Virus record (IMG/VR): IMGVR_UViG_2778261009_000009
DNA length: 35,253 nt
Origin: a virus
Taxonomy: Duplodnaviria > Heunggongvirae > Uroviricota > Caudoviricetes
Reading direction: 5' to 3' (one strand)
Of this stretch, positions 1,972 through 34,966 are shown piece by piece. Below the pieces are notes generated by a model. That model ran no database searches. It was not told the DNA's origin and saw only the letters and a list, made by a program, of their open reading frames with translations. The stretch's first letter is position 1. The number at the start of each line of letters is the position of its first letter. The position numbers and the translations under genes were made by a program.

Positions 1972-2038
1972 CCAACTAATGAAATTAATGGCGTAAACCC
2001 GCCGGGCATCCCTTTATCTAAATTCAGGAGAATTGCTT

Positions 2039-2272
2039 ATGCGTAATATTGAAACCCTCACGACCAAAACCGGACCGGATGATGCAGGTCTTAATCTTTT
2101 ACTGACAGAGGCTCGTCTGGAAGAACGCCGGGCAAGGGCTGAAGCAATGGCTGCTCGCCTCGATAGCCTGGCGTGTCATATCACCTCCCGCCAGCTAAAC
2201 CACGTCGAAGCGGCAGAACTGCTGCGTGTGACTGCTGAAGCAATCCAGAACGAAGCGCAGGAGATCCACTGA
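2039..2272 (+). CDS. hypothetical early protein (77 aa)
   Basis: ATG at 2039 with AGGAG at 2024-2028; stop overlaps next start. Confidence 0.5.
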   Translation: MRNIETLTTKTGPDDAGLNLLLTEARLEERRARAEAMAARLDSLACHITSRQLNHVEAAELLRVTAEAIQNEAQEIH

Positions 2273-2499
2273 TGGCTGATGCAATGGATCTCGTACAGCA
2301 GCGCGTTGAAGAAGAACGCCAACGCCATATCCGTGCTGCCCGTGCCAAAACGCCGGGCGTGTCCCGCGTGCTTTGCGTTGAGTGTGAAGCGCCAATTCCG
2401 CCAGCACGCCGCCGTGCCATTCCGGGTGTGCAGCTTTGCATTACCTGTCAGGAAATCGCAGAGCTGAAAGGCAAACATTACAACGGAGGTGCTGTATGA
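2272..2499 (+). CDS. TraR/DksA-family C4 zinc-finger protein
   Basis: CVECEAPIPPARRRAIPGVQLCITCQ four-Cys motif; 75 aa; start overlaps previous stop. Confidence 0.7.
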   Translation: MADAMDLVQQRVEEERQRHIRAARAKTPGVSRVLCVECEAPIPPARRRAIPGVQLCITCQEIAELKGKHYNGGAV

Positions 2500-3350
2500 G
2501 CACCATCCTGAAATGGGCAGGAAATAAAACCGCCATAATGTCCGAACTGAAAAAGCATCTTCCTGCTGGCCCGCGACTGGTTGAACCTTTCGCGGGTTCC
2601 TGTGCAGTGATGATGGAGACGGATTACCCCAGCTATCTTGTTGCGGATATTAATCCTGATTTAATCAACCTCTATAAAAAGGTTGCTGCTGATTGTGAGG
2701 CGTTTATATCTCGTGCCAGAGCTTTATTTGAGGAAGCAAACAGGGAGGTGGCTTATTACAACATAAGGCAGGAGTTTAATTACTCCACTGAAATTACTGA
2801 TTTCATGAAAGCGGTATATTTCCTGTATCTCAATCGTCACGGTTACCGTGGTTTATGTCGCTATAACAAGAGCGGGCATTTCAACATTCCCTACGGTAAT
2901 TATAAAAATCCGTATTTCCCTGAAAAAGAAATTCGCGCATTTGCAGAGAAAGCCCAGCGGGCAACGTTTATCTGCGCCAGCTTTGATGAAACGCTGGCGA
3001 TGTTGAAGGTGGGGGATGTGGTGTATTGCGATCCGCCTTATGACGGTACGTTTTCCGGCTATCACACTGATGGTTTCACTGAAGATGATCAGTATCACCT
3101 GGCATCCATTCTTGAACATCGGTCATCAGAAGGACATCCGGTCATTGTTTCTAACAGTAACACGTCTTTGACCCGGTCCCTTTATCGTAATTTCACTCAC
3201 CACTACATCAGGGCGAAACGCAGCATCGGCGTTGCAGCGGGGGAGGGAAAATTTGCAACAGAGATGATTGCCACTAAATCTGCTAATTGGTTTAGTGCCG
3301 ATTTTAGTAGGGGACGTGACTCTACTGTTATTTTCGGGGTGCAAGTGTGA
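2496..3350 (+). CDS. dam: Dam-type N6-adenine DNA methyltransferase
   Basis: N-terminal KWAGNK...EPFAGS and catalytic DPPY motif (CDPPYDG); GGAGG RBS; ATG at 2496 overlaps previous stop. Confidence 0.85.
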
Positions 3351-4177
3351 AAGAAATGCACCACGGAATTCATCATTTCCATGGGACGCCTGTCTGGGGA
3401 AGTGCTGGCGACGTTCATCGTATTGCGGTGAGCGGAGCTGGCGCTTTCGTCTCCTATGTACGACCAGATCAGATTGCGGCGTCCATTCAGCACGCTCAGG
3501 TCGTCGGCATTGATAACGGCGCATTTTCTGCATGGGTGCGTGGGCTAAAAATTAACTGGAGTGATTTTTATAAATGGCTCCTGAACTATTACCACCATCC
3601 TAAGGTCGCTTTTTTTGTCATTCCTGATGTTGTGGACGGAGGTGAACGTGACAATGATGCCCTGATAAACGAAGTTCCGAAAATGTTCTACGGGAAGGCA
3701 ACTCCCGTCTGGCATCTGCACGAGTCAATCGATCGGCTTATCGAGCTATGTCGTGAATGGCCTCGTGTCTGCTTTGGATCGTCTGGTGAATATGCGGCTA
3801 TCAGAACTGCGCACTGGCATCGTCGTATGCAGGACGCTTTTGAAGCAATTTATTGCCGACACAATTTCAAAACAGCTGTTCATGGTTTGCGCATGCTTGA
3901 CGGTCGTGTGTTGGGAAATTACCCACTGGCGACTGCCGACAGTACAAATCTTGCCTGCAATGTCCCCAAATTTAATAGCAAATATCCTGAGCTGACGCGG
4001 GCTATTCAGGAGGCTGAGTATTCGCGCAATCTGACGGAAAAGGAGCTGAAAGCTGTCATTCTGAAAAACCGTTGCGCAATTTTAAAAGGTGCAATTGAAG
4101 CTGTTCGCCCACCTTCAGTTTCTGATTGGCTGTCGAATGGTTTGCAGCCTTCACAGCTCGAACTGGAGATTGCGTAA
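3347..4177 (+). CDS. TGT-fold (tRNA-guanine transglycosylase-like, possibly DpdA-like) protein; hypothesis
   Basis: 276-aa ORF with motifs resembling TGT catalytic-Asp segments (VVGIDNGAF ~ LTDSGGFQ; FFVIPDVV ~ MIFDEC; GLRMLDGR ~ GIDMFDC); no CxCxxC zinc motif; start overlaps dam stop. Confidence 0.45.
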
Positions 4178-6518
4178 TGAACTACAGCTATTCCTGGAAT
4201 GCTGAGAAAAAAGCAATCAATCCTTACGTAGAGACGGAAGAGCAATCTTCAGTTTCTGCGCTTTCAAACCTGATCGCTCTGTACGCTGCCGATAACGAGC
4301 AGGAACAGCTGCGCCGCGAGGCACTGAGTGATCAGGTCTGGGAGCGTTATTTCTTTAATGAATCCCGTGATCCTGTCCAGCGCGAAATGGAGCAGGATAA
4401 GCTCATTAGTCGGGCAAAGCTGGCGCATGAGCAGCAGCGTTTTAATCCAGATATGGTCATTCTGGCGGACGTTAATGCCCAGCCTTCCCATATCAGCAAG
4501 CCACTGATGCAACGTATTGAATACTTCAGCAGCCTGGGCAGGCCAAAGGCTTATTCCCGCTATTTGCGTGAGACGATTAAGCCATGTCTGGAACGGCTGG
4601 AGCATGTACGCGACTGTCAGCTATCCACTTCTTTTCGCTTTATGGCAAGCCATGAAGGGCTGGACGGCCTGCTGATCCTGCCTGAAATGAGTCAGGATCA
4701 GGTGAAACGCCTGTCCACCCTGGTAGCTGCGCATATGAGCATGTGCCTTGATGCAGCTTGTGGCGATTTGTATGTCACCGATGACGTTAAGCCAGAAGAA
4801 ATCCGCAAGACATGGGAAAAGGTGGCAGCGGAAACCCTGCGTCTGGATGTTATCCCGCCTGCGTTTGAGCAACTCCGCCGGAAAAGAAACCGCCGTAAAC
4901 CCGTGCCCTATGAACTCATTCCGGGTTCGCTGGCGCGTATGTTGTGCGCTGACTGGTGGTACCGGAAATTATGGAAGATGCGTTGCGAATGGCGGGAAGA
5001 GCAGTTGCGTGCTGTCTGCCTGGTCAGCAAAAAGCATCTCCCTATGTCAGCTATGAAGCCGTGATGCATAAACGTGAGCAGCGCCGTAAGTCGCTGGAGT
5101 TTTTTCGTTCTCATGAACTGGTGAACGAAGACGGCGACACGCTGGACATGGAGGATGTGGTAAACGCCAGCAGCAGCAACCCTGCGCATCGCCGCAATGA
5201 GATGATGGCCTGTGTTAAAGGCCTGGAGCTTATCGCGGAAATGCGCGGTGACTGCGCCGTTTTCTACACCATCACCTGTCCGTCACGTTTCCATTCCACG
5301 CTAAATAATGGCAGGCCCAACCCAACTTGGACAAATGCGACGGTAAGACAAAGCAGTGATTATCTGGTCGGCATGTTTGCTGCATTTCGTAAGGCGATGC
5401 ACAAAGCCGGATTGCGGTGGTATGGCGTGCGGGTGGCTGAGCCGCATCATGACGGTACAGTTCACTGGCACCTGTTGTGTTTTATGCGCAAAAAAGACCG
5501 CCGCGCCATCACTGCATTACTGCGTAAGTTTGCCATCCGTGAAGACCGCGAGGAACTGGGCAATAACACTGGGCCGCGCTTTAAGTCTGAGTTGATTAAC
5601 CCGCGCAAAGGTACGCCAACAAGCTACATCGCGAAATACATCAGTAAGAACATTGACGGGCGTGGTCTGGCTGGCGAGATCAGCAAGGAAACGGGGAAAT
5701 CCCTGCGTGATAATGCTGAATACGTTAATGCCTGGGCGTCTCTGCATCGTGTTCAGCAATTCCGCTTCTTTGGCATTCCGGGGCGTCAGGCTTACCGTGA
5801 ACTGCGATTGCTGGCTGGTCAGGCGGCAAGGCAACAGGGGGACAAAAAAGCAGGTGCGCCGGTACTGGATAACCCGCGCCTTGATGCCATCCTGGCTGCT
5901 GCTGATGCTGGTTGTTTTGCCACCTACATCATGAAGCAGGGCGGCGTACTGGTTCCCCGCAAATATCACCTCATCAGAACCGCTTATGAAATCAACGAAG
6001 AGCCGACCGCCTATGGCGATCACGGCATTCGTATTTATGGCATCTGGTCACCTATTGCAGAGGGCAAGATCTGCACTCATGCCGTGAAGTGGAAAATGGT
6101 TCGTAAGGCCGTTGATGTTCAGGAGGCGGCAGCCGACCAGGGCGCTTGCGCCCCTTGGACTCGTGGCAATAACTGTCCCCCTGTTGAAAATTTGAACCAA
6201 TCAGGGGGCGATTTACCAGAAGCCAGTGGGCCGGAGTCGCTGCCGGATCTTCATAATCTGAGCGCGAAGGAACGACGGGAGCTGACGGCGCGGCTGAGAT
6301 TGGTAAAACCTAAGCGGCGGAAAGGGTACAAACAGCAGATTAGCAATCATCAGCGCCAGCAGCTTGATGCTGAACTGAGGTCTAGGGGGTTCGATGCGAG
6401 TGATACCGAGGTGGATCTGCTTTTGCGTGGTGGCAGTATCCCGTCCGGGGCCGGGCTGCGTTTGTTCTATCGAAACCAGCGCCTGCAGGAAGATGATAAA
6501 TGGCGGCAGTGGTACTAA
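4177..6518 (+). CDS. A: Replication initiation protein A (HUH rolling-circle endonuclease), interrupted by a frame change near 5029-5034 (ORFs 4177..5064 and 4956..6518)
   Basis: [16 protein letters not shown] motif and [12 protein letters not shown] tyrosine motif in the downstream frame; both frames resemble P2 A across the junction as recalled from memory. Confidence 0.8.
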
Positions 6519-6550
6519 TGTGAGAGTATTTTATATTCATATTCAAAAAT

Positions 6551-6582
6551 GCCAGCCTAACAAATCAGGCTGACATTTTTTT
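6551..6582. terminator. Bidirectional rho-independent terminator between gene A and convergent cargo operon
   Basis: Stem cagcct/aggctg (6553-6558/6567-6572), T7 run 6576-6582 on plus, A5 run 6545-6549 giving T-run on minus. Confidence 0.5.
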
Positions 6583-6589
6583 ACTTACT

Positions 6590-7048
6590 CTATTTAGTTT
6601 TTTCAATCATAGTGCTTTCGGCTTTTGAATATACACTATTAATAGTGGTGATTTTTGTAGTTAATGCTATACAAACTAGACTCAGAAGTAAGACACCAAT
6701 TGATATTGTATTGTTGCTGAGTATTATATGTAGACAAATAGAATAAATTGCAACAATGACTATTGCTACGAAAACAAAGATTGCCATTAAATTATGTGCT
6801 TTGATGTAGTCCTCAGGGGTTAATATGTAGCTTATGTTTATGATTATAAATAAAATTAAAAATGCTCCCCCAATCCATTTGGGTAGGGCTGTTTCTTTTT
6901 TTGATACTGCAGGTGTGGTTCTTGGGATCGATTCTACGAAGGATTTAAGATTTCCCATGTCAGTATTGTTTAATGCTGCACTTTCTGCTTCGAATTTTGA
7001 AACAGTGCCATCAGGAAGGGTTGTAGTCCAGCTTATTTTTCCTGTCAT
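6590..7048 (-). CDS. cargo membrane protein (152 aa; about 55-aa soluble N-terminus then about 3 TM helices), unknown function
   Basis: AT-rich ORF; start ATG overlaps upstream stop (ATGA); AGGGA RBS; hydrophobic segments FLILFIIINISYIL, MAIFVFVAIVIVAIYSI, IGVLLLSLVCIAL. Confidence 0.6.
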   Translation of the reverse strand: MTGKISWTTTLPDGTVSKFEAESAALNNTDMGNLKSFVESIPRTTPAVSKKETALPKWIGGAFLILFIIINISYILTPEDYIKAHNLMAIFVFVAIVIVAIYSICLHIILSNNTISIGVLLLSLVCIALTTKITTINSVYSKAESTMIEKTK

Positions 7049-7419
7049 ACAACATCCCTTATTCTGAATATTCTATTAAAATCAATATCAACAGCAGAGT
7101 TCGACCACTCACTCTTTTGATTATCTTTAATTAGAATTGCTTTGTTCTCGTCAAAGATTATATTTGTACCACTAAACTCAATATGAGATAGGTCTCCTCT
7201 AAATATTTTTTGCTCAACGCTTTTGAATGCATCTTTTAATGATGCACACTCTTTTCTGAATAATGGTTTGGGGCTGTAAGTCCCTAAGTTTATAACTATT
7301 ACGCCACTACCATCTTTAGCAGGGTGAATGGAGAAAGATAGCGCTAATCCGTGATAGTGGGATTGTATTTTCTTCATTAATTTACGAACGTAATCATCAT
7401 ACCGCTTTCTATATATCAT
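7045..7419 (-). CDS. cargo soluble protein (124 aa), unknown function, first gene of two-gene operon
   Basis: AT-rich ORF translationally coupled to 6590..7048; candidate promoter TCGACA-18-TAATAT upstream on minus strand. Confidence 0.55.
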   Translation of the reverse strand: MIYRKRYDDYVRKLMKKIQSHYHGLALSFSIHPAKDGSGVIVINLGTYSPKPLFRKECASLKDAFKSVEQKIFRGDLSHIEFSGTNIIFDENKAILIKDNQKSEWSNSAVDIDFNRIFRIRDVV

Positions 7420-7583
7420 TTTTTTCTTAATGGTTAGTTGTTTTTCGTATATTACAATACTAATAAATATATTGTCGATTCAAATAAAACGTTGTAGCCA
7501 AGCGGAAGAATTTTAGTTTACGGATGGTTGTTTTTTGATCTCCATAGCCGAAGGCAATCTGAACTATAGTGATCATAAAAGTG

Positions 7584-7627
7584 TTTACATTCATGGAACT
7601 ACGCATATACTGTATATGTGTACAGTG
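7584..7627 (+). promoter_or_regulatory. SOS-regulated promoter: -35 TTTACA (7584-7589), -10 TATACT (7606-7611), LexA box TACTGTATATGTGTACAGTG (7608-7627)
   Basis: Perfect CTGT-N8-ACAG palindrome (7610-7625) overlapping the -10 and start site, about 30 bp upstream of a strong RBS. Confidence 0.7.
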
Positions 7628-7657
7628 CTTTCTGTGTGTTTGGTGATAGGAGGGAAG

Positions 7658-7846
7658 ATGCAAGACTATTTTTTGGAGTCGTTGAAGCTCCAGCGCATTG
7701 ATTTTTTTGTCAAGCTTGTGGCGGCTAGTGAGTGTGATGATGAAGAGAAGCGACTGGCTATCCAGTGGGTTTCTGAGTTAACGGATGAGCTGATGGCAAA
7801 GATTCGTGCTCATGAATACAACCGCTCAATGGATCTTCCCAGTTAA
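7658..7846 (+). CDS. SOS-controlled small protein (62 aa), candidate Tum/DinI-like antirepressor
   Basis: ATG at 7658 with TAGGAGGGA RBS immediately downstream of LexA box; acidic small protein; weak resemblance to DinI C-terminus. Confidence 0.55.
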   Translation: MQDYFLESLKLQRIDFFVKLVAASECDDEEKRLAIQWVSELTDELMAKIRAHEYNRSMDLPS

Positions 7847-7924
7847 CAGCAGGAACGTTGCTGGCGTGAGAACTAGCTTCTTACGTCAGCAAGGTTAAAC
7901 AACGAGTACAACGAGGCGTTAGCC

Positions 7925-8191
7925 ATGGGTAAATCCAACAGCAAATTCCAGACCGTTTATGAGGGGCAGGCGCTTGAACGTGACGAACTTGGCGGATGGG
8001 TTTTGTTTCAGCGTCGTGTAGAGTATGGCGGCAAGTACTGGATGGGAATAACCATGGATGATGTGTTTTTGTTTGGCTCCGATCATCCTGTATCAGGTAG
8101 TGAGGCGATGGTCTTCATCATTGATTATGAGGGCGAGCAGCTCAGACGGTCTTTACCCGTTGGATACACCCCACAAATGCCGCTTTTCTGA
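7925..8191 (+). CDS. SOS-operon second gene (88 aa), unknown function
   Basis: ORF with GAGG RBS, same strand, followed by strong terminator. Confidence 0.5.
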   Translation: MGKSNSKFQTVYEGQALERDELGGWVLFQRRVEYGGKYWMGITMDDVFLFGSDHPVSGSEAMVFIIDYEGEQLRRSLPVGYTPQMPLF

Positions 8192-8258
8192 CAACCGGCT
8201 GGGTGCATGTCTATGCTGCATGAGATCGCATGATCGTTTGAGGATCGTTTTCGCTGAG

Positions 8259-8286
8259 GCCCGCCAGAACTGGCGGGCTTTTGCTT
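8259..8286 (+). terminator. rho-independent terminator of the SOS operon
   Basis: 8-bp GC stem gcccgcca/tggcgggc, loop gaac, followed by TTTTGCTT. Confidence 0.75.
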
Positions 8287-8327
8287 ATGTCATGCAGGTG
8301 CATGAAAATCGCTCCATAAAGCGGGCA

Positions 8328-8346
8328 GGCGTGGCGGGGATACGAG
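8328..8346. other. candidate cos site (cohesive-end sequence) GGCGTGGCGGGGATACGAG
   Basis: First 13 nt match the P2/186-family 19-nt cohesive end as I recall it (GGCG(A/T)GGCGGGGAAAGCA...); lies in non-coding DNA between right-end genes and the Q side. Confidence 0.35.
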
Positions 8347-8433
8347 CGCGCGCAATAGGGTTATGTACAATAAATTTTTGACGATCTTCGAGTGTTATTA
8401 GCTTGAGGCTGTCAGGGAAAATGAATACAATAA

Positions 8434-8465
8434 GAAGCGCCTAGCAGAATGTTACTAGGCGCTTC
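8434..8465 (-). terminator. perfect 11-bp inverted repeat hairpin (gaagcgcctag ... ctaggcgcttc), possible terminator of the minus-strand cargo operon
   Basis: Read directly; followed on minus strand by T-rich stretch; no T-run on plus. Confidence 0.35.
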
Positions 8466-8498
8466 GAATATATAACCTGTATGACTTTCTTAACCTAC

Positions 8499-8606
8499 TT
8501 ATCTTTTTGATTTCTTCTTCGTATCATCGTGATCGAATACTTGGCGTGTAGGCGGCTTGCTGGGTGGTGGCGGCGGCGGTAAATTAGATTTCTCATTTTT
8601 GCTCAT
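8499..8606 (-). CDS. polyproline mini-ORF 3 (35 aa): MSKNEKSNLPPPPPPSKPPTRQVFDHDDTKKKSKR
   Basis: Hand-translated; own AGGA RBS; start lies inside the end of mini-ORF 2; paralogous to two upstream mini-ORFs. Confidence 0.35.
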   Translation of the reverse strand: MSKNEKSNLPPPPPPSKPPTRQVFDHDDTKKKSKR

Positions 8607-8724
8607 CTTTATTTTTCCTATTTTTTGGATCATTGCCATAGCTTTCTCTAACTAACCGAGTGATTGGCGGTTTAGGTGGTGGTGGTGGTGCTTCATTTTT
8701 TTTAGGATTTTTGTGTTCGGTCAT
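8593..8724 (-). CDS. polyproline mini-ORF 2 (43 aa): MTEHKNPKKNEAPPPPPKPPITRLVRESYGNDPKNRKNKDEQK
   Basis: In-frame portion of track ORF 8593..8778 starting at ATG 8724 with AAGGA RBS; overlaps neighbours in other frames. Confidence 0.4.
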   Translation of the reverse strand: MTEHKNPKKNEAPPPPPKPPITRLVRESYGNDPKNRKNKDEQK

Positions 8725-8839
8725 TTTTATCGTCCTTTCTGTCTCTTCGTAGTTGCCTTGCTTTTGAATCATCTTCAATAACGATCCTTCTTGCGGGTGG
8801 AGTAGGCCGAGGAGGTGGTGGCGGTAACGGTTTGGTCAT
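8702..8839 (-). CDS. polyproline mini-ORF 1 (45 aa): MTKPLPPPPPRPTPPARRIVIEDDSKARQLRRDRKDDKNDRTQKS
   Basis: Hand-translated; ATG overlaps stop of upstream membrane-protein gene (TAATG); AGGAGA RBS 5 nt upstream. Confidence 0.4.
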   Translation of the reverse strand: MTKPLPPPPPRPTPPARRIVIEDDSKARQLRRDRKDDKNDRTQKS

Positions 8840-9489
8840 TAAGTTCTCCTGACATTTTCAATAGGTATTATCAAATAGTTAGGGTCGTTATTTTTCCGCG
8901 GTGATGCTGCATCTAAATCAGCTAAAAGAAATATGACTACTGCTGCGATAATTGGAATCCATGACCAGACAAGATACTTTGTTGACTCAAATAGTTTACT
9001 GGAACGTTCCTCATTGATATTACTGTTCCAGCTAGCACATTCTCTGATTTCTTGATGAATAAACTCCCAAAGTTTATTATCAGGGTTATAACTTTCATCG
9101 TATGTAAGTCCATTGTCATCGCAATATTTTTTATATTTCACTTCGTAACTAATCAGATCTATGTGATAATCATGCAATGCTTTAGGTGCAGGGCAATACT
9201 TAAATTCATTTCCCCATATGACTTGTTTCAACAGAATTGATGATACAAGAACTAAACCAAATGAAATTGCGGTACATAAAAATACTAGGCAAGCTAGCCT
9301 TGGGTGGGATTCATAAGATGTATTTTTGGCGAGATAAGTGAGTATAGTTGCGGTAATGACAACTAATCCGAATTCGGCTTGAGCGCGAGTATGTATCTTG
9401 TCTTTATTCTCAATTTCTGAGAAATAAAGTTTTTCGTAAAATTCTAATGCTTTATCCTTTTTCATTTTTAGATTCAGTGTGATGTCCAT
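8839..9489 (-). CDS. cargo membrane protein (216 aa; two N-proximal TM helices, soluble Cys-containing middle domain, C-terminal TM helix), unknown function
   Basis: AT-rich ORF between portal terminator and mini-ORFs; hydrophobic segments FGLVVITATILTYL, LACLVFLCTAISFGLVLVSSILL, VWSWIPIIAAVVIFLL. Confidence 0.6.
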   Translation of the reverse strand: MDITLNLKMKKDKALEFYEKLYFSEIENKDKIHTRAQAEFGLVVITATILTYLAKNTSYESHPRLACLVFLCTAISFGLVLVSSILLKQVIWGNEFKYCPAPKALHDYHIDLISYEVKYKKYCDDNGLTYDESYNPDNKLWEFIHQEIRECASWNSNINEERSSKLFESTKYLVWSWIPIIAAVVIFLLADLDAASPRKNNDPNYLIIPIENVRRT

Positions 9490-17861: not shown

Positions 17862-18300
17862 ACTGCAGAAGGTGGACGACTGGCTGAGTGCCTTGCTGGC
17901 GAATCTGGAACCAGCCACGAGAAGTCGCATGATGCGCCAGCTGGCGCAGGAACTGCGCCGGACACAGCAGCAGAACATCAGGATGCAGCGCAATCCAGAT
18001 GGCAGCAGTTATGAACCTCGACGGGTAACAGCACGCAGTAAAAAGGGGCGCATCAAACGTCAGATGTTTGCAAAGCTGCGCACCACAAAATACCTGAAAA
18101 CTGCCGCCAGCGCCGACTCTGCCAGCGTACAGTTTGAAGGTAAGGTGCAGCGTATTGCCCGTGTTCACCATTACGGCCTGCGCGATCGCGTCAGTCGCAA
18201 AGGACCGGAAGTTCGTTACGCAGAGCGTCGGTTGCTGGGTCTTAATGGTGAGTCTTACGTTCTAACTCTTGATATATTGAATAGATTCCTTCTGTCTTGA
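17854..18300 (+). CDS. S: tail completion protein gpS-like (GTG start); last ~19 codons lie in AT-rich inserted DNA
   Basis: Size and position as P2 S; 3' end overlaps convergent moron gene. Confidence 0.75.
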   Translation: MAELQKVDDWLSALLANLEPATRSRMMRQLAQELRRTQQQNIRMQRNPDGSSYEPRRVTARSKKGRIKRQMFAKLRTTKYLKTAASADSASVQFEGKVQRIARVHHYGLRDRVSRKGPEVRYAERRLLGLNGESYVLTLDILNRFLLS

Positions 18301-19048
18301 ATTCACCATATGCCCAATGAATTGCATTTTTTTGTTCAGTCAGAATATATTTCCTAACTTTTTTAGAATAATGAATGGTCAGTATAAAACCCAAAGAAAT
18401 CCATAATAGAATAAATATGGTTGTTGGGGCAAAGGAATAGATAAAGAATTTGTCTTTAACGAAATTCTTGACTTCTTCATCAATGTAAGCATTCCCTTCA
18501 TCAGTGGTTAGTAGTTTACAAAGAATTTCTTTATGTTCGATAGTTAATGATTTGTACTTCTCTGTACTGGCAGAGGATGACTCTTCGCAATCATCCTTTG
18601 ATATTTCCCAATCAGGAGTGGTTAATATTGTAGCTGCAGTCGCCAGTTTTTTTGACATATAAAATGATTCACCGGACTTTATCCAATAAAGCAATGTGCT
18701 ATTTGGTGGGGTTCTAATGGCTTGGATGAAAACTGGACCAAAAATATAAATTGCATACAAAAAAAGAAGTGAAAAGAGAACCGTGATTGATTTTTCAGCC
18801 CATGTGATAGTAGGCAGCCTTTTTAATGATATTCGTATAAGAAAAAAATTTAATATAAACGCAGGTATTCCTGATTTTTTCAAAATTACATCATGAGATT
18901 TTCTATATTTGAATAGTGCTCTTATAACTATCGTCACCAAAGTTATAATAGCTCCAATAATGGAAATCCATGCGGCAAGTGCCGCTGCCGGGGTGTTTAA
19001 AAATTCAGCATTAAATATATTAGAACTTATTGGATTCATAACACTCAT
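18242..19048 (-). CDS. moron-encoded membrane protein (268 aa, about 4 TM helices with central soluble region), unknown function
   Basis: AT-rich minus-strand ORF between S and V; AGGTGG RBS; hydrophobic segments at N-terminus, ~88-110 and ~210-232. Confidence 0.6.
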   Translation of the reverse strand: MSVMNPISSNIFNAEFLNTPAAALAAWISIIGAIITLVTIVIRALFKYRKSHDVILKKSGIPAFILNFFLIRISLKRLPTITWAEKSITVLFSLLFLYAIYIFGPVFIQAIRTPPNSTLLYWIKSGESFYMSKKLATAATILTTPDWEISKDDCEESSSASTEKYKSLTIEHKEILCKLLTTDEGNAYIDEEVKNFVKDKFFIYSFAPTTIFILLWISLGFILTIHYSKKVRKYILTEQKNAIHWAYGEFKTEGIYSIYQELERKTHH

Positions 19049-32633: not shown

Positions 32634-34319
32634 TTATCCTAATCCTGGCCATACCATGACGATGATTGTCCCTGCCAGCGTCAGCAGGACGTTGGCGATT
32701 GCATAGGTGCCCGCATAGCCCAGCGCCGGGATGTTACTGCGAGCTGTATCACTGATGATCTCCATTGCCGGCGCGCAGGTACGTGCGCCCATCATTGCGC
32801 CGAACAACAGCGCGCGGTTCATTCGCAATACATAAGCACCGAACAAGAAACAGATAACCACGGGCACCAGACTGACAATCAATCCGGCAATCAACATCTG
32901 ACCGCCAATCGCGCCCAGGCCGTTATTAATACCGCTACCGGCGCTCAGACCAACGCCTGCCATAAACACCATCAAGCCGAACTCTTTCACCATGCTTAAT
33001 GCACCCTGCGGAATGTAACCGAAGGTCGGGTGGTTAGCACGCATAAAGCCCAGCATAATTCCGGCGAATAACAACCCGGCAGCGTTCCCCATGCCGAAAC
33101 TGAATGTGCTGAACTGGAAGGTGATCATCCCGATCATCAGCCCAATAACAAAGAAGGCGCAGAATGCCAGCAGGTCAGTGACCTGGCTGTGAATCGAGAT
33201 AAAGCCGATGCGATCGGCGATGGTTTTTACGCGGCGGGCATCGCCGCTGACTTGTAAAACGTCACCTTTGTTAAGCACGACGTTGTCATCTATCGGCATC
33301 TCAATCTGGCTACGAATGACGCGGTTAAGGAAGCAACCGTGATCGGTCAACTTCAGTTGTGCGAGACGTTTACCTACAGCGTTATGGTTTTTAACGACCA
33401 CTTCTTCAGTGACGATACGCATGTCGAGAAGGTCACGATCGAAAACTTCTTTACCGTTACGGAAGCTGGGATCGAGTCGGGCATGGGCGTCGGGATAGCC
33501 TACCAACGCTATTTCATCGCCCATTTGTAGCACGGCATCACCGTCTGGATTTGCCAGAATCCCGTTACGTCGAATACGTTCAATGTAGCAGCCGGTTTGT
33601 CGATAAATACCCAGTTCACGCAGATTTTTGCCGTCGGTCCAGGCCACCAGTTCCGGGCCGACGCGATAGGCGCGGATCACCGGTAAATAAACCTTACGGT
33701 TGGCATCAGTGTCCAGGCCACGTTCGCGGGCGATTTGCTGGGCGCTGGTCTGTAAGTCCTGATGCTGCAATTTCGGCAAGTAACGCGCACCAACAATCAA
33801 ACTCACCAGACCGATTAAATAGGTTAAGGCATACCCGAGGCTCAGATTATCCAGTGCCAGTGAGAGCTGCCTGCTTTCCATGCCGGAATGACGCAGTGTA
33901 TCGCCAGCACCGACCAGAACCGGTGTCGACGTCATAGAGCCTGCTAACATACCGGCCGTCAGGCCAATATCCCAGCCAAACAGCTTACCTAACCCTAAGG
34001 CGATCACCAGCGCACTGCCAACCATCACCAGTGCTAACATTAGGTAATTTTTCCCATCGCGAAAAAAAATGGAAAAAAAGTTCGGTCCGGCTTCGACCCC
34101 GACGCAGAAAATAAACAGCATAAAGCCAAGATTAAGCGCATCGGTGTTAATGCTGAAATGTTGTTGGCCTAATAACAGCGATACGACTAAAACGCCAATG
34201 GAATTACCCAGTTGGATCGAACCAAGTCGTAACTTTCCGAGACATAGCCCAAGCGCGAGGACCACAAATAATAACAGAATGTAATTCCCATTTAACAATT
34301 CGGCGACGTTTATATTCAC
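32634..34319 (-). CDS. ybjL: host putative transporter YbjL (AAE family, 561 aa, GTG start)
   Basis: Multi-TM N- and C-terminal halves flanking soluble RCK_C-like repeats; recognised as E. coli YbjL. Confidence 0.8.
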
Positions 34320-34588
34320 GGAGGCTAACTTCTTGTTTACTAGTAAGCTGTTGAAAGAAATGGTAATTTACGATAATGTTTTTTACCAGAATTCAGGGCG
34401 CAGATTCATTCAGCGCACCTAAACGATAGTAAAGTAACAATATATTTTACTAGTGTAATCACATTAGGTATCAACGGCTATATGAATTGCGTTGGCCTAT
34501 ATTAGCATGGAATGCGAAGCGGCTTTATCTTACTGAACGCCACACTGGCGAAAAATGTGTTCGATAGACGCAGTGTCAGGAGGAACGA

Positions 34589-34966
34589 GTGAAACATAAA
34601 CAACGTTGGGCGGGGGCAATCTGCTGTTTTGTCCTCTTCATTGTGGTGTGCCTTTTTCTGGCGACGCACATGAAAGGCGCTTTTCGGGCTGCCGGGCATC
34701 CTGAAATCGGCTTGCTATTTTTCATTCTTCCTGGAGCAGTCGCCAGCTTCTTTTCACAGCGTAGAGAAGTCCTGAAACCTCTGTTTGGCGCAATGCTGGC
34801 GGCACCCTGTTCGATGCTCATTATGCGGCTGTTTTTTTCACCGACGCGCTCATTCTGGCAAGAGCTGGCATGGTTACTAAGCGCGGTGTTCTGGTGTGCG
34901 CTGGGGGCACTGTGTTTCTTATTTATCAGTAGTTTGTTTAAACCACAGCACAGAAAAAATCAGTAA
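34589..34966 (+). CDS. ybjM: host inner membrane protein YbjM (125 aa, GTG start)
   Basis: CAGGAGG RBS; hydrophobic 125-aa protein adjacent to grxA as in E. coli. Confidence 0.7.
   Translation: MKHKQRWAGAICCFVLFIVVCLFLATHMKGAFRAAGHPEIGLLFFILPGAVASFFSQRREVLKPLFGAMLAAPCSMLIMRLFFSPTRSFWQELAWLLSAVFWCALGALCFLFISSLFKPQHRKNQ

Follow-up and report, generated by a model that had tools for sequence, protein, structure and literature searches.

The 276-amino-acid (aa) open reading frame (ORF) at positions 3347 to 4177 (+ strand) of the window, the 35,253-nucleotide stretch of caudoviral DNA analyzed here, a P2-like prophage of E. coli (IMG/VR record IMGVR_UViG_2778261009_000009), belongs to the already catalogued family of stand-alone ("solo") phage DpdA proteins and encodes a minimal barrel of the tRNA-guanine transglycosylase (TGT) fold. 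Solo phage DpdA enzymes are believed to replace a small number of guanines in DNA by a host-made 7-deazaguanine, and, by analogy, we moderately favor the reading that this protein modifies phage DNA from host precursors. The gene itself is not new. An earlier analysis based on the DNA letters only (here, the sequence-only reading) had treated it as a possible discovery, but the orthologue from the P2-like Salmonella phage SEN1 (76% identical) already figured in a 2019 list of DpdA-only phages (PMC6884629).

Family membership of the 276-aa protein

The protein matched PHROG 887 (phrog_887, labeled "queuine tRNA-ribosyltransferase") with an E value of 2.4e-96. The same family is matched by the DpdA of phage CAjan (8.2e-96), as well as by 7-11 gp032, MED16 gp38, and the homologues from BTP1 and Epa33. 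CAjan DpdA is genetically validated, given that deletion of dpdA abolished dPreQ0 (PMC6884629). When a profile built from 66 homologues was compared with the CAjan DpdA family by hhalign, the probability was 98.8% (E value of 8.5e-17 over 159 columns), a result that, together with the shared PHROG family, shows that the guess of a TGT/DpdA-like protein made in the sequence-only reading was right. Pairwise, the similarity to CAjan DpdA amounts to ∼22% identity (BLASTP E value of 0.001), compared with 75 to 76% identity to the SI22 and SEN1 proteins, 54.7% to MED16, and 34% to 7-11. In total, 555 clusters (at 50% identity) match the 276-aa protein.

No Pfam, NCBIfam, or PADLOC model, including the PADLOC models for bacterial Dpd systems, matched the protein. 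For PF01702, there was no match at an E value of ≤1 for this protein or for the other 65 members of the 66-sequence alignment, and a Pfam scan found none in the DpdA proteins of CAjan, 7-11, MED16, BTP1, and Epa33 either. Searches of the PDB sequences with phmmer and with the 66-sequence profile retrieved chance matches only, such as GCN4 coiled coils, and a tblastn search of the phage collection with E. coli Tgt yielded host-like tgt genes only and no DpdA. When the 66-homologue, CAjan-family, or merged alignment was compared with 8 bacterial TGTs by hhalign, no result was significant; the 66-homologue alignment reached a probability of 0.1, and the best result against the TGT alignment (P = 0.009) paired CAjan D63 with D89 of E. 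coli TGT. Since these sequence and profile comparisons with TGT are not significant, the link to canonical TGTs rests on the fold search described below and on an HHpred match published for MED16 DpdA (99.18% to 2ASH; PMC8306585).

Fold and active site

The AF2 model of the protein (pLDDT of 93, pTM of 0.89) consists of eight beta-alpha units and ends in short helices, without an extra subdomain at the C terminus. Foldseek against the PDB, the check proposed in the sequence-only reading, returned the TGT-superfamily fold, i.e., the (beta/alpha)8 barrel expected of a phage DpdA, with Cap10 and arcTGT as the two best matches. Among the BFVD structures, 33 matched at an E value of ≤1e-3, and the named ones are mostly annotated as queuine tRNA-ribosyltransferase.

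Residues D56, D94, H123, H179, and D198-S199 are invariant in the 66 homologues, down to ∼26% identity, and residue 60 is either F or Y. When aligned with the CAjan family, D56/F60 corresponds to D63/F67, H123 to H132, G144 to G153, H179 to H187, and D198-S199 to D206-S207, whereas the second aspartate is displaced (D94 here versus D105 in CAjan). The invariant residues also fit the Cap10 active site (D73, D122, K154, H226, and D248) in order and spacing, and that of bacterial DpdA (D95, F99, D130, H181, and D256; PMC10164549) by order and spacing only. Thus, D56, D94, and D198 provide the acids expected of a phage DpdA (general acid/base, base-binding, and nucleophilic aspartates). Two of the three catalytic motifs named in the sequence-only reading hold up in this comparison, with D56 (IDNGAF) and D94 (IPDVV) invariant among the 66 sequences, but D185 (GLRMLDGR) is conserved in only 32 of them. 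We therefore rejected D185 as the nucleophile; the invariant acid is found in D198-S199, and sequence conservation points to D198 as the likely nucleophile. The lack of a CxCxxC zinc subdomain was correctly noted: none of the five cysteines lies in a CxCxxC...H motif, and none is conserved among the 66 homologues.

Compared with DpdA1 of the Queuovirinae (Escherichia phages CAjan and 9g), the protein has a homologous barrel core in which the DxGAFS, H, G, H, and DS motifs align, and both are small and have no Pfam TGT match. The differences are that the C-terminal 70 residues are unrelated and that CAjan and 9g carry folE-queD-queE-queC (and yhhQ) beside dpdA and replace 25 to 32% of G. The bacterial DpdA from the Salmonella Montevideo Dpd system (PDB 7UI4) is larger (413 aa, with several insertions), contains a structural Zn site, and depends on the ATPase DpdB, whereas the protein described here has 276 aa, no Zn site, and 13% identity to it. 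As for a DpdB partner, the neighbors here are Dam and gene A, and no ParB-like family appears among the genes up to two positions away in 38 nonredundant related loci. Unlike bacterial TGT and archaeal ArcTGT (PF01702), the 276-aa protein has neither the CxCxxC...H subdomain nor the C-terminal tRNA-binding domains.

Operon layout and the gene A frameshift

The gene is part of a run of consecutive + strand ORFs with stop/start overlaps of 1 to 4 nucleotides (nt). The first is a small ORF of the DUF2732 family (2039 to 2272, + strand; its start in the ORF list is TTG 2033 or ATG 2039), a label taken from the annotation of the 99.9% identical E. coli EC11 copy. Its stop codon overlaps, in the junction TGATG, the ATG of a TraR/DksA-family C4 zinc-finger gene (2272 to 2499, + strand; PF01258, 4.4e-11; TIGR02419, 67 bits with a cutoff of 59.7; phrog_54). 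An ATGA junction leads from there to an orphan N6-adenine DNA methyltransferase of the Dam family (2496 to 3350, + strand; PF02086, 2e-76; TIGR00571, 318 bits; PADLOC orphan methyltransferase, 6e-110), which contains the DPPY motif. Dam and the 276-aa ORF share the junction GTGA, and TAATG joins the latter to gene A, which starts at 4177. The overlap with Dam hinges on the GTG start at 3347; the RefSeq start, ATG 3356 (273 aa), leaves a 5-nt gap instead. Hence, the overlaps described in the sequence-only reading are present, but five genes are coupled rather than four. This coupling is real but not special, as tight overlaps are normal for the operon and for the gene family, in which a 4-nt overlap is the commonest spacing to the upstream ORF (38 nonredundant loci).

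Gene A (replication endonuclease), previously taken as one gene, carries a frameshift in the window that had been missed, and it appears as two ORFs in different frames (4177 to 5064 and 4956 to 6518). The N-terminal part (4177 to 5064, + strand; PF05840 positions 1 to 115; phrog_91) is cut short by a stop codon that follows the frameshift, and the C-terminal part continues in the shifted frame from 5034 to 6518 (+ strand; PF05840 positions 107 to 321, 3.5e-98; phrog_91, 5.6e-222) within the ORF listed from 4956. Alignment to EC11 places a 1-nt deletion in a run of five A's at 5029 to 5033 (+ strand; six A's in EC11). Adding one A to this run restores a 780-aa gene A protein, the length at which the gene is intact in EC11. 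A sequencing error in this homopolymer is a possible source of the frameshift.

Genomic context and precursor genes

Using a 16-sequence alignment, we collected 79 related loci, 38 of them nonredundant, and tallied the Pfam families of the neighbors within two genes on either side. In P2-like phages (9 of the 38 nonredundant loci), the DpdA-like gene immediately precedes the gene for the replication initiator. In other phages it occupies other sites, namely, the ea region of BTP1, a position beside head genes in Vibrio K394, and one near a C5 methylase in Epa33. In the window, in Epa33, and in some of the relatives, DNA methyltransferase genes are neighbors of the DpdA-like gene. A Dam gene is the upstream neighbor in only 3 of the 38 nonredundant loci, and in other P2-like relatives a small DUF5405 ORF takes its place. 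These counts rule out Dam and DpdA as an obligate pair, and the "two-layer module" of the sequence-only reading is facultative.

The closest known systems are the DpdA-only (singleton) phages of gammaproteobacteria, represented by Salmonella phages SEN1 (gp38; P2-like) and 7-11 (gp032), SW9 (gp39; P2-like), Pantoea phage MED16 (gp38), and the homologues from BTP1 and SPN3UB (Hutinet 2019, PMC6884629; Simoliunas 2021, PMC8306585). They share the protein family (all in phrog_887), have no que genes, and infect hosts with the full queuosine pathway. According to its annotation, SI22 (Eganvirus SW9) has the gene at the equivalent position, immediately ahead of gene A, and the match in SEN1 adjoins its replication protein gene. 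The locus described here differs in having Dam upstream, not the small DUF5405 ORF, and in its host, E. coli.

There are no que or yhhQ genes in the window, in line with the expectation that the phage has no preQ0 genes of its own, and phmmer searches with CAjan FolE, QueC, QueE, and QueD against all ORFs of the 79 loci and the window gave no significant match. In one related locus (L076), a QueD (PTPS) gene, visible through Pfam PTPS only, lies directly upstream of the DpdA-like gene, and the Pfam tally contains a second upstream PTPS match. In 6 of the 38 nonredundant loci (12 of all 79), a gene of the YhhQ family (PF02592) is at most two genes away from the DpdA-like gene, and relatives whose DpdA is 59 to 60% identical to the 276-aa protein have a two-gene YhhQ-DpdA cassette. 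YhhQ is a family of preQ0 transporters. The queuosine pathway is present in the E. coli host.

The DpdA-like gene was found in 107 of 5,426 complete E. coli genomes (∼2%). The ORF is intact and 99 to 100% identical in ∼100 genomes whose gene A carries a replication endonuclease annotation, and the copies examined are labeled "hypothetical protein" in RefSeq.

Proposed mechanism and alternative explanations

The homology, the fold, the conserved active-site residues, the absence of que genes, and the linkage to 7-deazaguanine genes in relatives are read from the sequences and the model, and we infer from them a DNA substrate, the kind of base inserted, and a benefit to the phage, as follows. 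If it works like bacterial DpdA and TGT, the protein would be a stripped-down TGT-fold TIM barrel that acts on DNA without a zinc subdomain. Upon entry of the prophage into lytic growth, the early operon would express Dam, the DpdA gene, and the replication initiator. [quoted passage not shown] Because the phage has no que genes, this base (preQ0 or its amide ADG) would have to be supplied by the queuosine pathway of E. coli (FolE, QueD, QueE, and QueC) or by YhhQ-mediated salvage. A small precursor pool would mean that only a small fraction of the guanines is replaced, judging by relatives no more than some tens of sites per 32-kb genome, and the most likely purpose would be to blunt some host nuclease-based defense in the next host.

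The use of host precursors is possible, as the sequence-only reading had suggested, given that relatives adjoin YhhQ-family genes and that 9g DpdA alone produces dPreQ0 in plasmid DNA in E. coli, at 0.3% of G versus ∼25% in the phage, which has its own pathway (PMC6884629). Without que genes, MED16 carries dADG at 0.13% of G, and phage 7-11 carries it at 0.02% (PMC8306585). No functional study of DpdA from a P2-like or temperate phage came up in our literature search. Several observations count against the preferred explanation. The solo-DpdA phage Orion had no modification, although its host is devoid of the pathway. The dADG levels in 7-11 and MED16, the nearest tested relatives, are very low. 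MED16 DNA is still cut by most restriction enzymes tried (PMC8306585), and the anti-restriction benefit suggested in the sequence-only reading is unproven. Moreover, the base in 7-11 and MED16 is ADG rather than preQ0, with no amidating enzyme identified.

Alternatively, the protein may be an active DNA transglycosylase whose role is not general anti-restriction but the placement of a few site-specific 7-deazaguanines for another purpose, such as escape from one defense system, self-marking of phage DNA, or modulation of Dam, replication, or packaging at particular sites. We regard this as unlikely, though credible: modification of 0.02 to 0.13% of G corresponds to roughly 3 to 20 sites here (16,524 G per 32.1 kb), MED16 DNA stayed restriction sensitive, and the gene directly precedes the replication initiator in P2-like phages. 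However, sparseness may simply reflect limiting host preQ0, as with 9g DpdA alone, and the gene has unrelated positions in BTP1, Vibrio K394, and Epa33 and is therefore not tied to gene A. It is rather unlikely that the solo-DpdA clade, with this P2-like enzyme, is not a diluted version of the bulk-modifying DpdA1 but a site-specific installer of the amide ADG, rather than preQ0, at a small set of fixed positions. The base would stem from a QueC intermediate of the host or from salvage, and the purpose would be other than blanket restriction evasion, for example, the defeat of one defense system or interplay with Dam-methylated sites. If true, this would explain dADG without an amidase, the very low stoichiometry, and the recurrent methyltransferase neighbors.

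The very low DNA modification in solo-DpdA phages, the TGT-superfamily fold, and the "queuine tRNA-ribosyltransferase" labels in databases could also speak for a minimal TGT that acts on RNA and remodels host tRNAs (by G/Q34 exchange or preQ0 insertion), thereby tuning translation or evading tRNA-targeting defenses. We consider such an enzyme improbable, as the homology is to the DNA-acting CAjan DpdA and not significantly to bacterial TGT, the zinc subdomain and the C-terminal parts of TGT are missing, and two phages that carry homologues contain dADG in their DNA; the "tRNA" label itself is an inherited annotation and not a test.

The best structural match, Cap10 of type IV CBASS (PDB 9NTN), counts against the DNA reading, since Cap10, which works with the QueC-like Cap9 on the CD-NTase N terminus, binds a deazaguanine-modified protein N terminus and not DNA or tRNA. 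A comparable role here, in which the pocket binds 7-deazaguanine on a protein or small molecule or transfers it to another acceptor, seems very improbable; no QueC-like ORF is present in the window, and neither CD-NTase nor QueC families occur among the neighbors within two genes in the 38 loci. Equally remote is a decayed, functionless passenger gene in a defective prophage: the frameshift means that this prophage copy may not replicate, and few E. coli genomes carry the gene, but the possible sequencing error, the near-identical intact ORFs, the intact gene A of EC11 (examined in detail), the six residues invariant across 66 homologues, and the 555 matching clusters argue against decay, and neither loss of conserved residues nor ORF disruption was seen in most relatives.

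Significance

The finding reveals no new kind of system. Naming the gene a solo DpdA fills an annotation gap in ∼2% of complete E. coli genomes, and P2-like prophages, which are inducible and reside in a host whose queuosine genetics is complete, offer a tractable system. Such a system could settle whether solo-DpdA phages modify their DNA, which base is used, where ADG originates, what the target motif is, and whether sparse modification protects the phage.

A DpdA-like gene in the early operon of a P2-like prophage

The window, a P2-like (Peduoviridae) prophage of Escherichia coli, shares 99.9% identity over positions 2000-6600 with prophages found on the chromosome in numerous complete E. 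coli genomes. Its early operon runs along the plus strand from a DUF2732 ORF (2039-2272) through a TraR/DksA zinc finger gene (2272-2499), the Dam methylase gene (2496-3350) and an ORF of 276 amino acids (3347-4177) to gene A (from 4177), with the successive junctions TGATG, ATGA, GTGA and TAATG. These junctions bear out the overlapping stop and start codons described in an earlier sequence-only reading, whose list of four genes has to be extended by one, since the run reaches further upstream to the DUF2732 ORF. If the 276-amino-acid ORF is started at ATG 3356, as annotated in RefSeq (273 amino acids), a 5-nucleotide gap follows Dam and there is no overlap.

Gene A (4177-6518) is short of one A in a homopolymer, with A5 at 5029-5033 versus A6 in EC11, an E. 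coli genome with a 99.9% identical prophage copy to which we aligned it, and in other copies. As a result, the Pfam GPA domain is divided between two ORFs in different frames, the first of which stops at 5064 and the second at 6518; adding one A restores a replication endonuclease of 780 amino acids. Either the frameshift is a real mutation that inactivates gene A and leaves the prophage defective, or the sequencing miscounted the homopolymer. At the right end of the window (32634-34966) lie a host-type ybjL-like Asp-Al_Ex/TrkA_C permease gene (minus strand) and ybjM (plus strand), which puts the boundary between prophage and host at about 32.1-32.6 kb. The other end of the prophage, with the integrase, is outside the window, left of the gene for the CI repressor.

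An AT-rich stretch (6590-9489; GC content, 0.39 to 0.44) separates gene A from the portal gene and occupies the position of a P2 accessory/defence hotspot. Its content is unlike that of EC11, where an “ATP-dependent nuclease” is present, and its minus-strand ORFs of 152, 124 and 216 amino acids had no significant Pfam or PADLOC match. Just 3′ of the 216-amino-acid ORF, on the same strand (8499-8839), are three tandem, partly overlapping small ORFs that have in common a poly-proline core (PPPPP..PP.R) and tails rich in lysine and arginine; apart from a short GGT run, the DNA there showed no tandem repeat. A further AT-rich island (GC content, 0.388) within the late-gene region carries, on the opposite strand, a DUF6216 ORF of 268 amino acids (18242-19048, minus strand), which is probably a moron.

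Homology and fold of the 276-amino-acid protein

No Pfam, NCBIfam or PADLOC family was found for the 276-amino-acid protein, and PDB sequences gave no match, even with a profile of 66 diverse homologues (alignment A1, which includes the window protein and reaches down to ∼26% identity). In PHROGs, however, the protein falls into phrog_887, “queuine tRNA-ribosyltransferase” (E value, 2.4e-96), a family matched comparably by the DpdA of phage CAjan, gp032 of phage 7-11, gp38 of Pantoea phage MED16 and the homologues from BTP1 and Epa33. Profile-profile comparison of A1 with the CAjan DpdA family gave a probability of 98.8% (E value, 8.5e-17; 159 columns). The family is moderately large; at an E value of ≤1e-3, matching clusters number 4,313 in the 90% identity clustering and 555 in the 50% identity clustering. 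The comparison of A1 with a small alignment of bacterial tRNA-guanine transglycosylases (TGTs) was not significant; for the deeper link to TGTs, the published HHpred match of MED16 DpdA to Thermotoga maritima TGT (99.18%) (PMC8306585) is better evidence than our own.

AlphaFold2 with A1 yielded a confident model (pLDDT, 93; pTM, 0.89) in which eight beta-alpha units precede a few helices at the C terminus. Foldseek, which the sequence-only reading had proposed as a check, returned the TGT-superfamily proteins Cap10 (E value, 1.6e-5) and ArcTGT (1.2e-3), and among viral models there were 33 matches at an E value of ≤1e-3, the named ones being mostly queuine tRNA-ribosyltransferases. With a modest margin over generic barrels, this predicted fold would be weak evidence by itself, and it becomes convincing only when the homology to DpdA and the pattern of conserved residues are considered as well. 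Taken together, phrog_887, the CAjan-family alignment and the TGT-like fold uphold the fold and family first guessed from short motifs, and the protein is almost certainly a DpdA-family homologue.

Conserved residues of the putative active site

Six residues (D56, D94, H123, H179, D198 and S199) are invariant in the 66 sequences of A1, which also show the nearly invariant motifs DNGA(F/Y), PD(V)I.G, PVWH..E, G(S)SG, HGLR and (S)ADS. In the profile-profile alignment, D56/F60, H123, G144, H179 and D198-S199 pair with positions that are invariant in the CAjan family. In order and spacing, the residues parallel both the bacterial DpdA site, in which D95 is the general acid/base and D256 the nucleophile, with F99, D130, H181 and a Gly-rich loop that follows strand 6 (PMC10164549), and the Cap10 site, composed of D73, D122, K154, H226 and D248; from this we infer how they may map onto the solved structures.

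Two of the three motif resemblances first pointed out, IDNGAF and IPDVV, were well chosen, as they contain the invariant D56 and D94. The third, GLRMLDGR, fails: its D185 occurs in just 32 of the 66 sequences, which rules it out as the nucleophile. D198 is instead the conserved candidate. No conserved cysteine was found in A1, and the protein therefore has no zinc site, as had been noted.

Genomic context of related genes

No homologues of folE, queD, queE, queC or yhhQ were found in the window. From 79 IMG/VR loci that encode relatives we kept 38 nonredundant ones, in which two genes on each side of the DpdA-like gene were scanned against Pfam. Gene A was the most common neighbor (9 loci, which form the P2-like subgroup). 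Next came Vut_1 transporters of the YhhQ family (6) and DUF5405 (5), followed by TraR (4), D12 methylases (3), PTPS/QueD (2) and an N6_N4 methylase (1). YhhQ is a family of preQ0/preQ1 transporters, and it scored above the Pfam threshold in five loci, among them L042 and L043. In these two, the transporter gene is followed by a DpdA-like gene (59 to 60% identity to the window protein) in a two-gene plus-strand cassette (4537-5783 and 4552-5798, respectively) with minus-strand genes on both sides, which looks like a mobile module to import the base and insert it. In a third locus (L076), a QueD-family gene is located immediately upstream. The YhhQ, QueD and methylase neighbors connect this clade with precursors of 7-deazaguanine and, less tightly, with the modification of DNA.

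The proposal that Dam and the DpdA-like gene form one module does not generalize: the pairing is optional, given the few loci with D12 methylases and P2-like relatives such as SI22, in which a small ORF stands in the place of Dam. Elsewhere among phages, the stand-alone (solo) gene sits within unrelated modules. Pseudomonas phage Epa33 (L006, 7019-9848) is another case of a DNA methyltransferase paired with this family, a C5 cytosine methylase of 696 amino acids directly following the DpdA-like gene; ASCH-domain and DUF1643 proteins are encoded further downstream.

Precedents and proposed function

The window gene belongs to an already catalogued kind. Supplementary Data 1 of Hutinet et al. 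lists the P2-like Salmonella phage SEN1 (YP_009217891) as a DpdA-only phage, beside 7-11, SE131, SPN3UB and BTP1 (PMC6884629); the SEN1 and window proteins share 75.7% identity. The MED16 study identifies SEN1 gp38 and SW9 gp39 as the viral homologues nearest to the MED16 DpdA (PMC8306585). In the literature searched, we found no functional study of the P2-like solo members. Among other relatives, CAjan loses all dPreQ0 from its DNA when dpdA is deleted, 9g DpdA alone generates dPreQ0 in E. coli plasmids (∼0.3% of G), and phage 7-11 carries dADG at 0.02% of G (PMC6884629). By analogy, the window protein would be a minimal DNA guanine transglycosylase, produced with Dam and gene A as lytic growth starts, that, once the phage DNA has replicated, swaps a small share of its guanines for a 7-deazaguanine base, which may be ADG or preQ0 and would come from the host queuosine pathway or from salvage, with D56 as acid/base and D198 as covalent nucleophile. 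We regard such an exchange as fairly probable. Both strands together, the prophage part contains 16,524 guanines, so the levels in relatives would correspond to roughly 3 to 50 modified sites.

In MED16, dADG makes up 0.13% of G and restriction digestion is little affected (PMC8306585); a site-specific role other than protection from restriction is a less likely reading of the window gene. An RNA target, of the kind named in the phrog_887 label, is improbable, and a role on something other than nucleic acid, like that of Cap10, the stronger of the two named fold matches, is very improbable. We likewise give little credence to a functionless passenger gene.

Of 5,426 complete E. coli genomes, 107 carry the solo gene, with an identity of ≥99% and the same Dam-ORF-gene A order in nearly all of them. 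Matches to some portion of the 4.6-kb TraR-to-gene A query, mainly in gene A, occur in 1,296 genomes. One prophage lineage carries the solo gene as an accessory gene, which RefSeq labels “hypothetical protein” in the copies examined. The chief value of these results lies in a better annotation and in a system for experiments on solo DpdA proteins.
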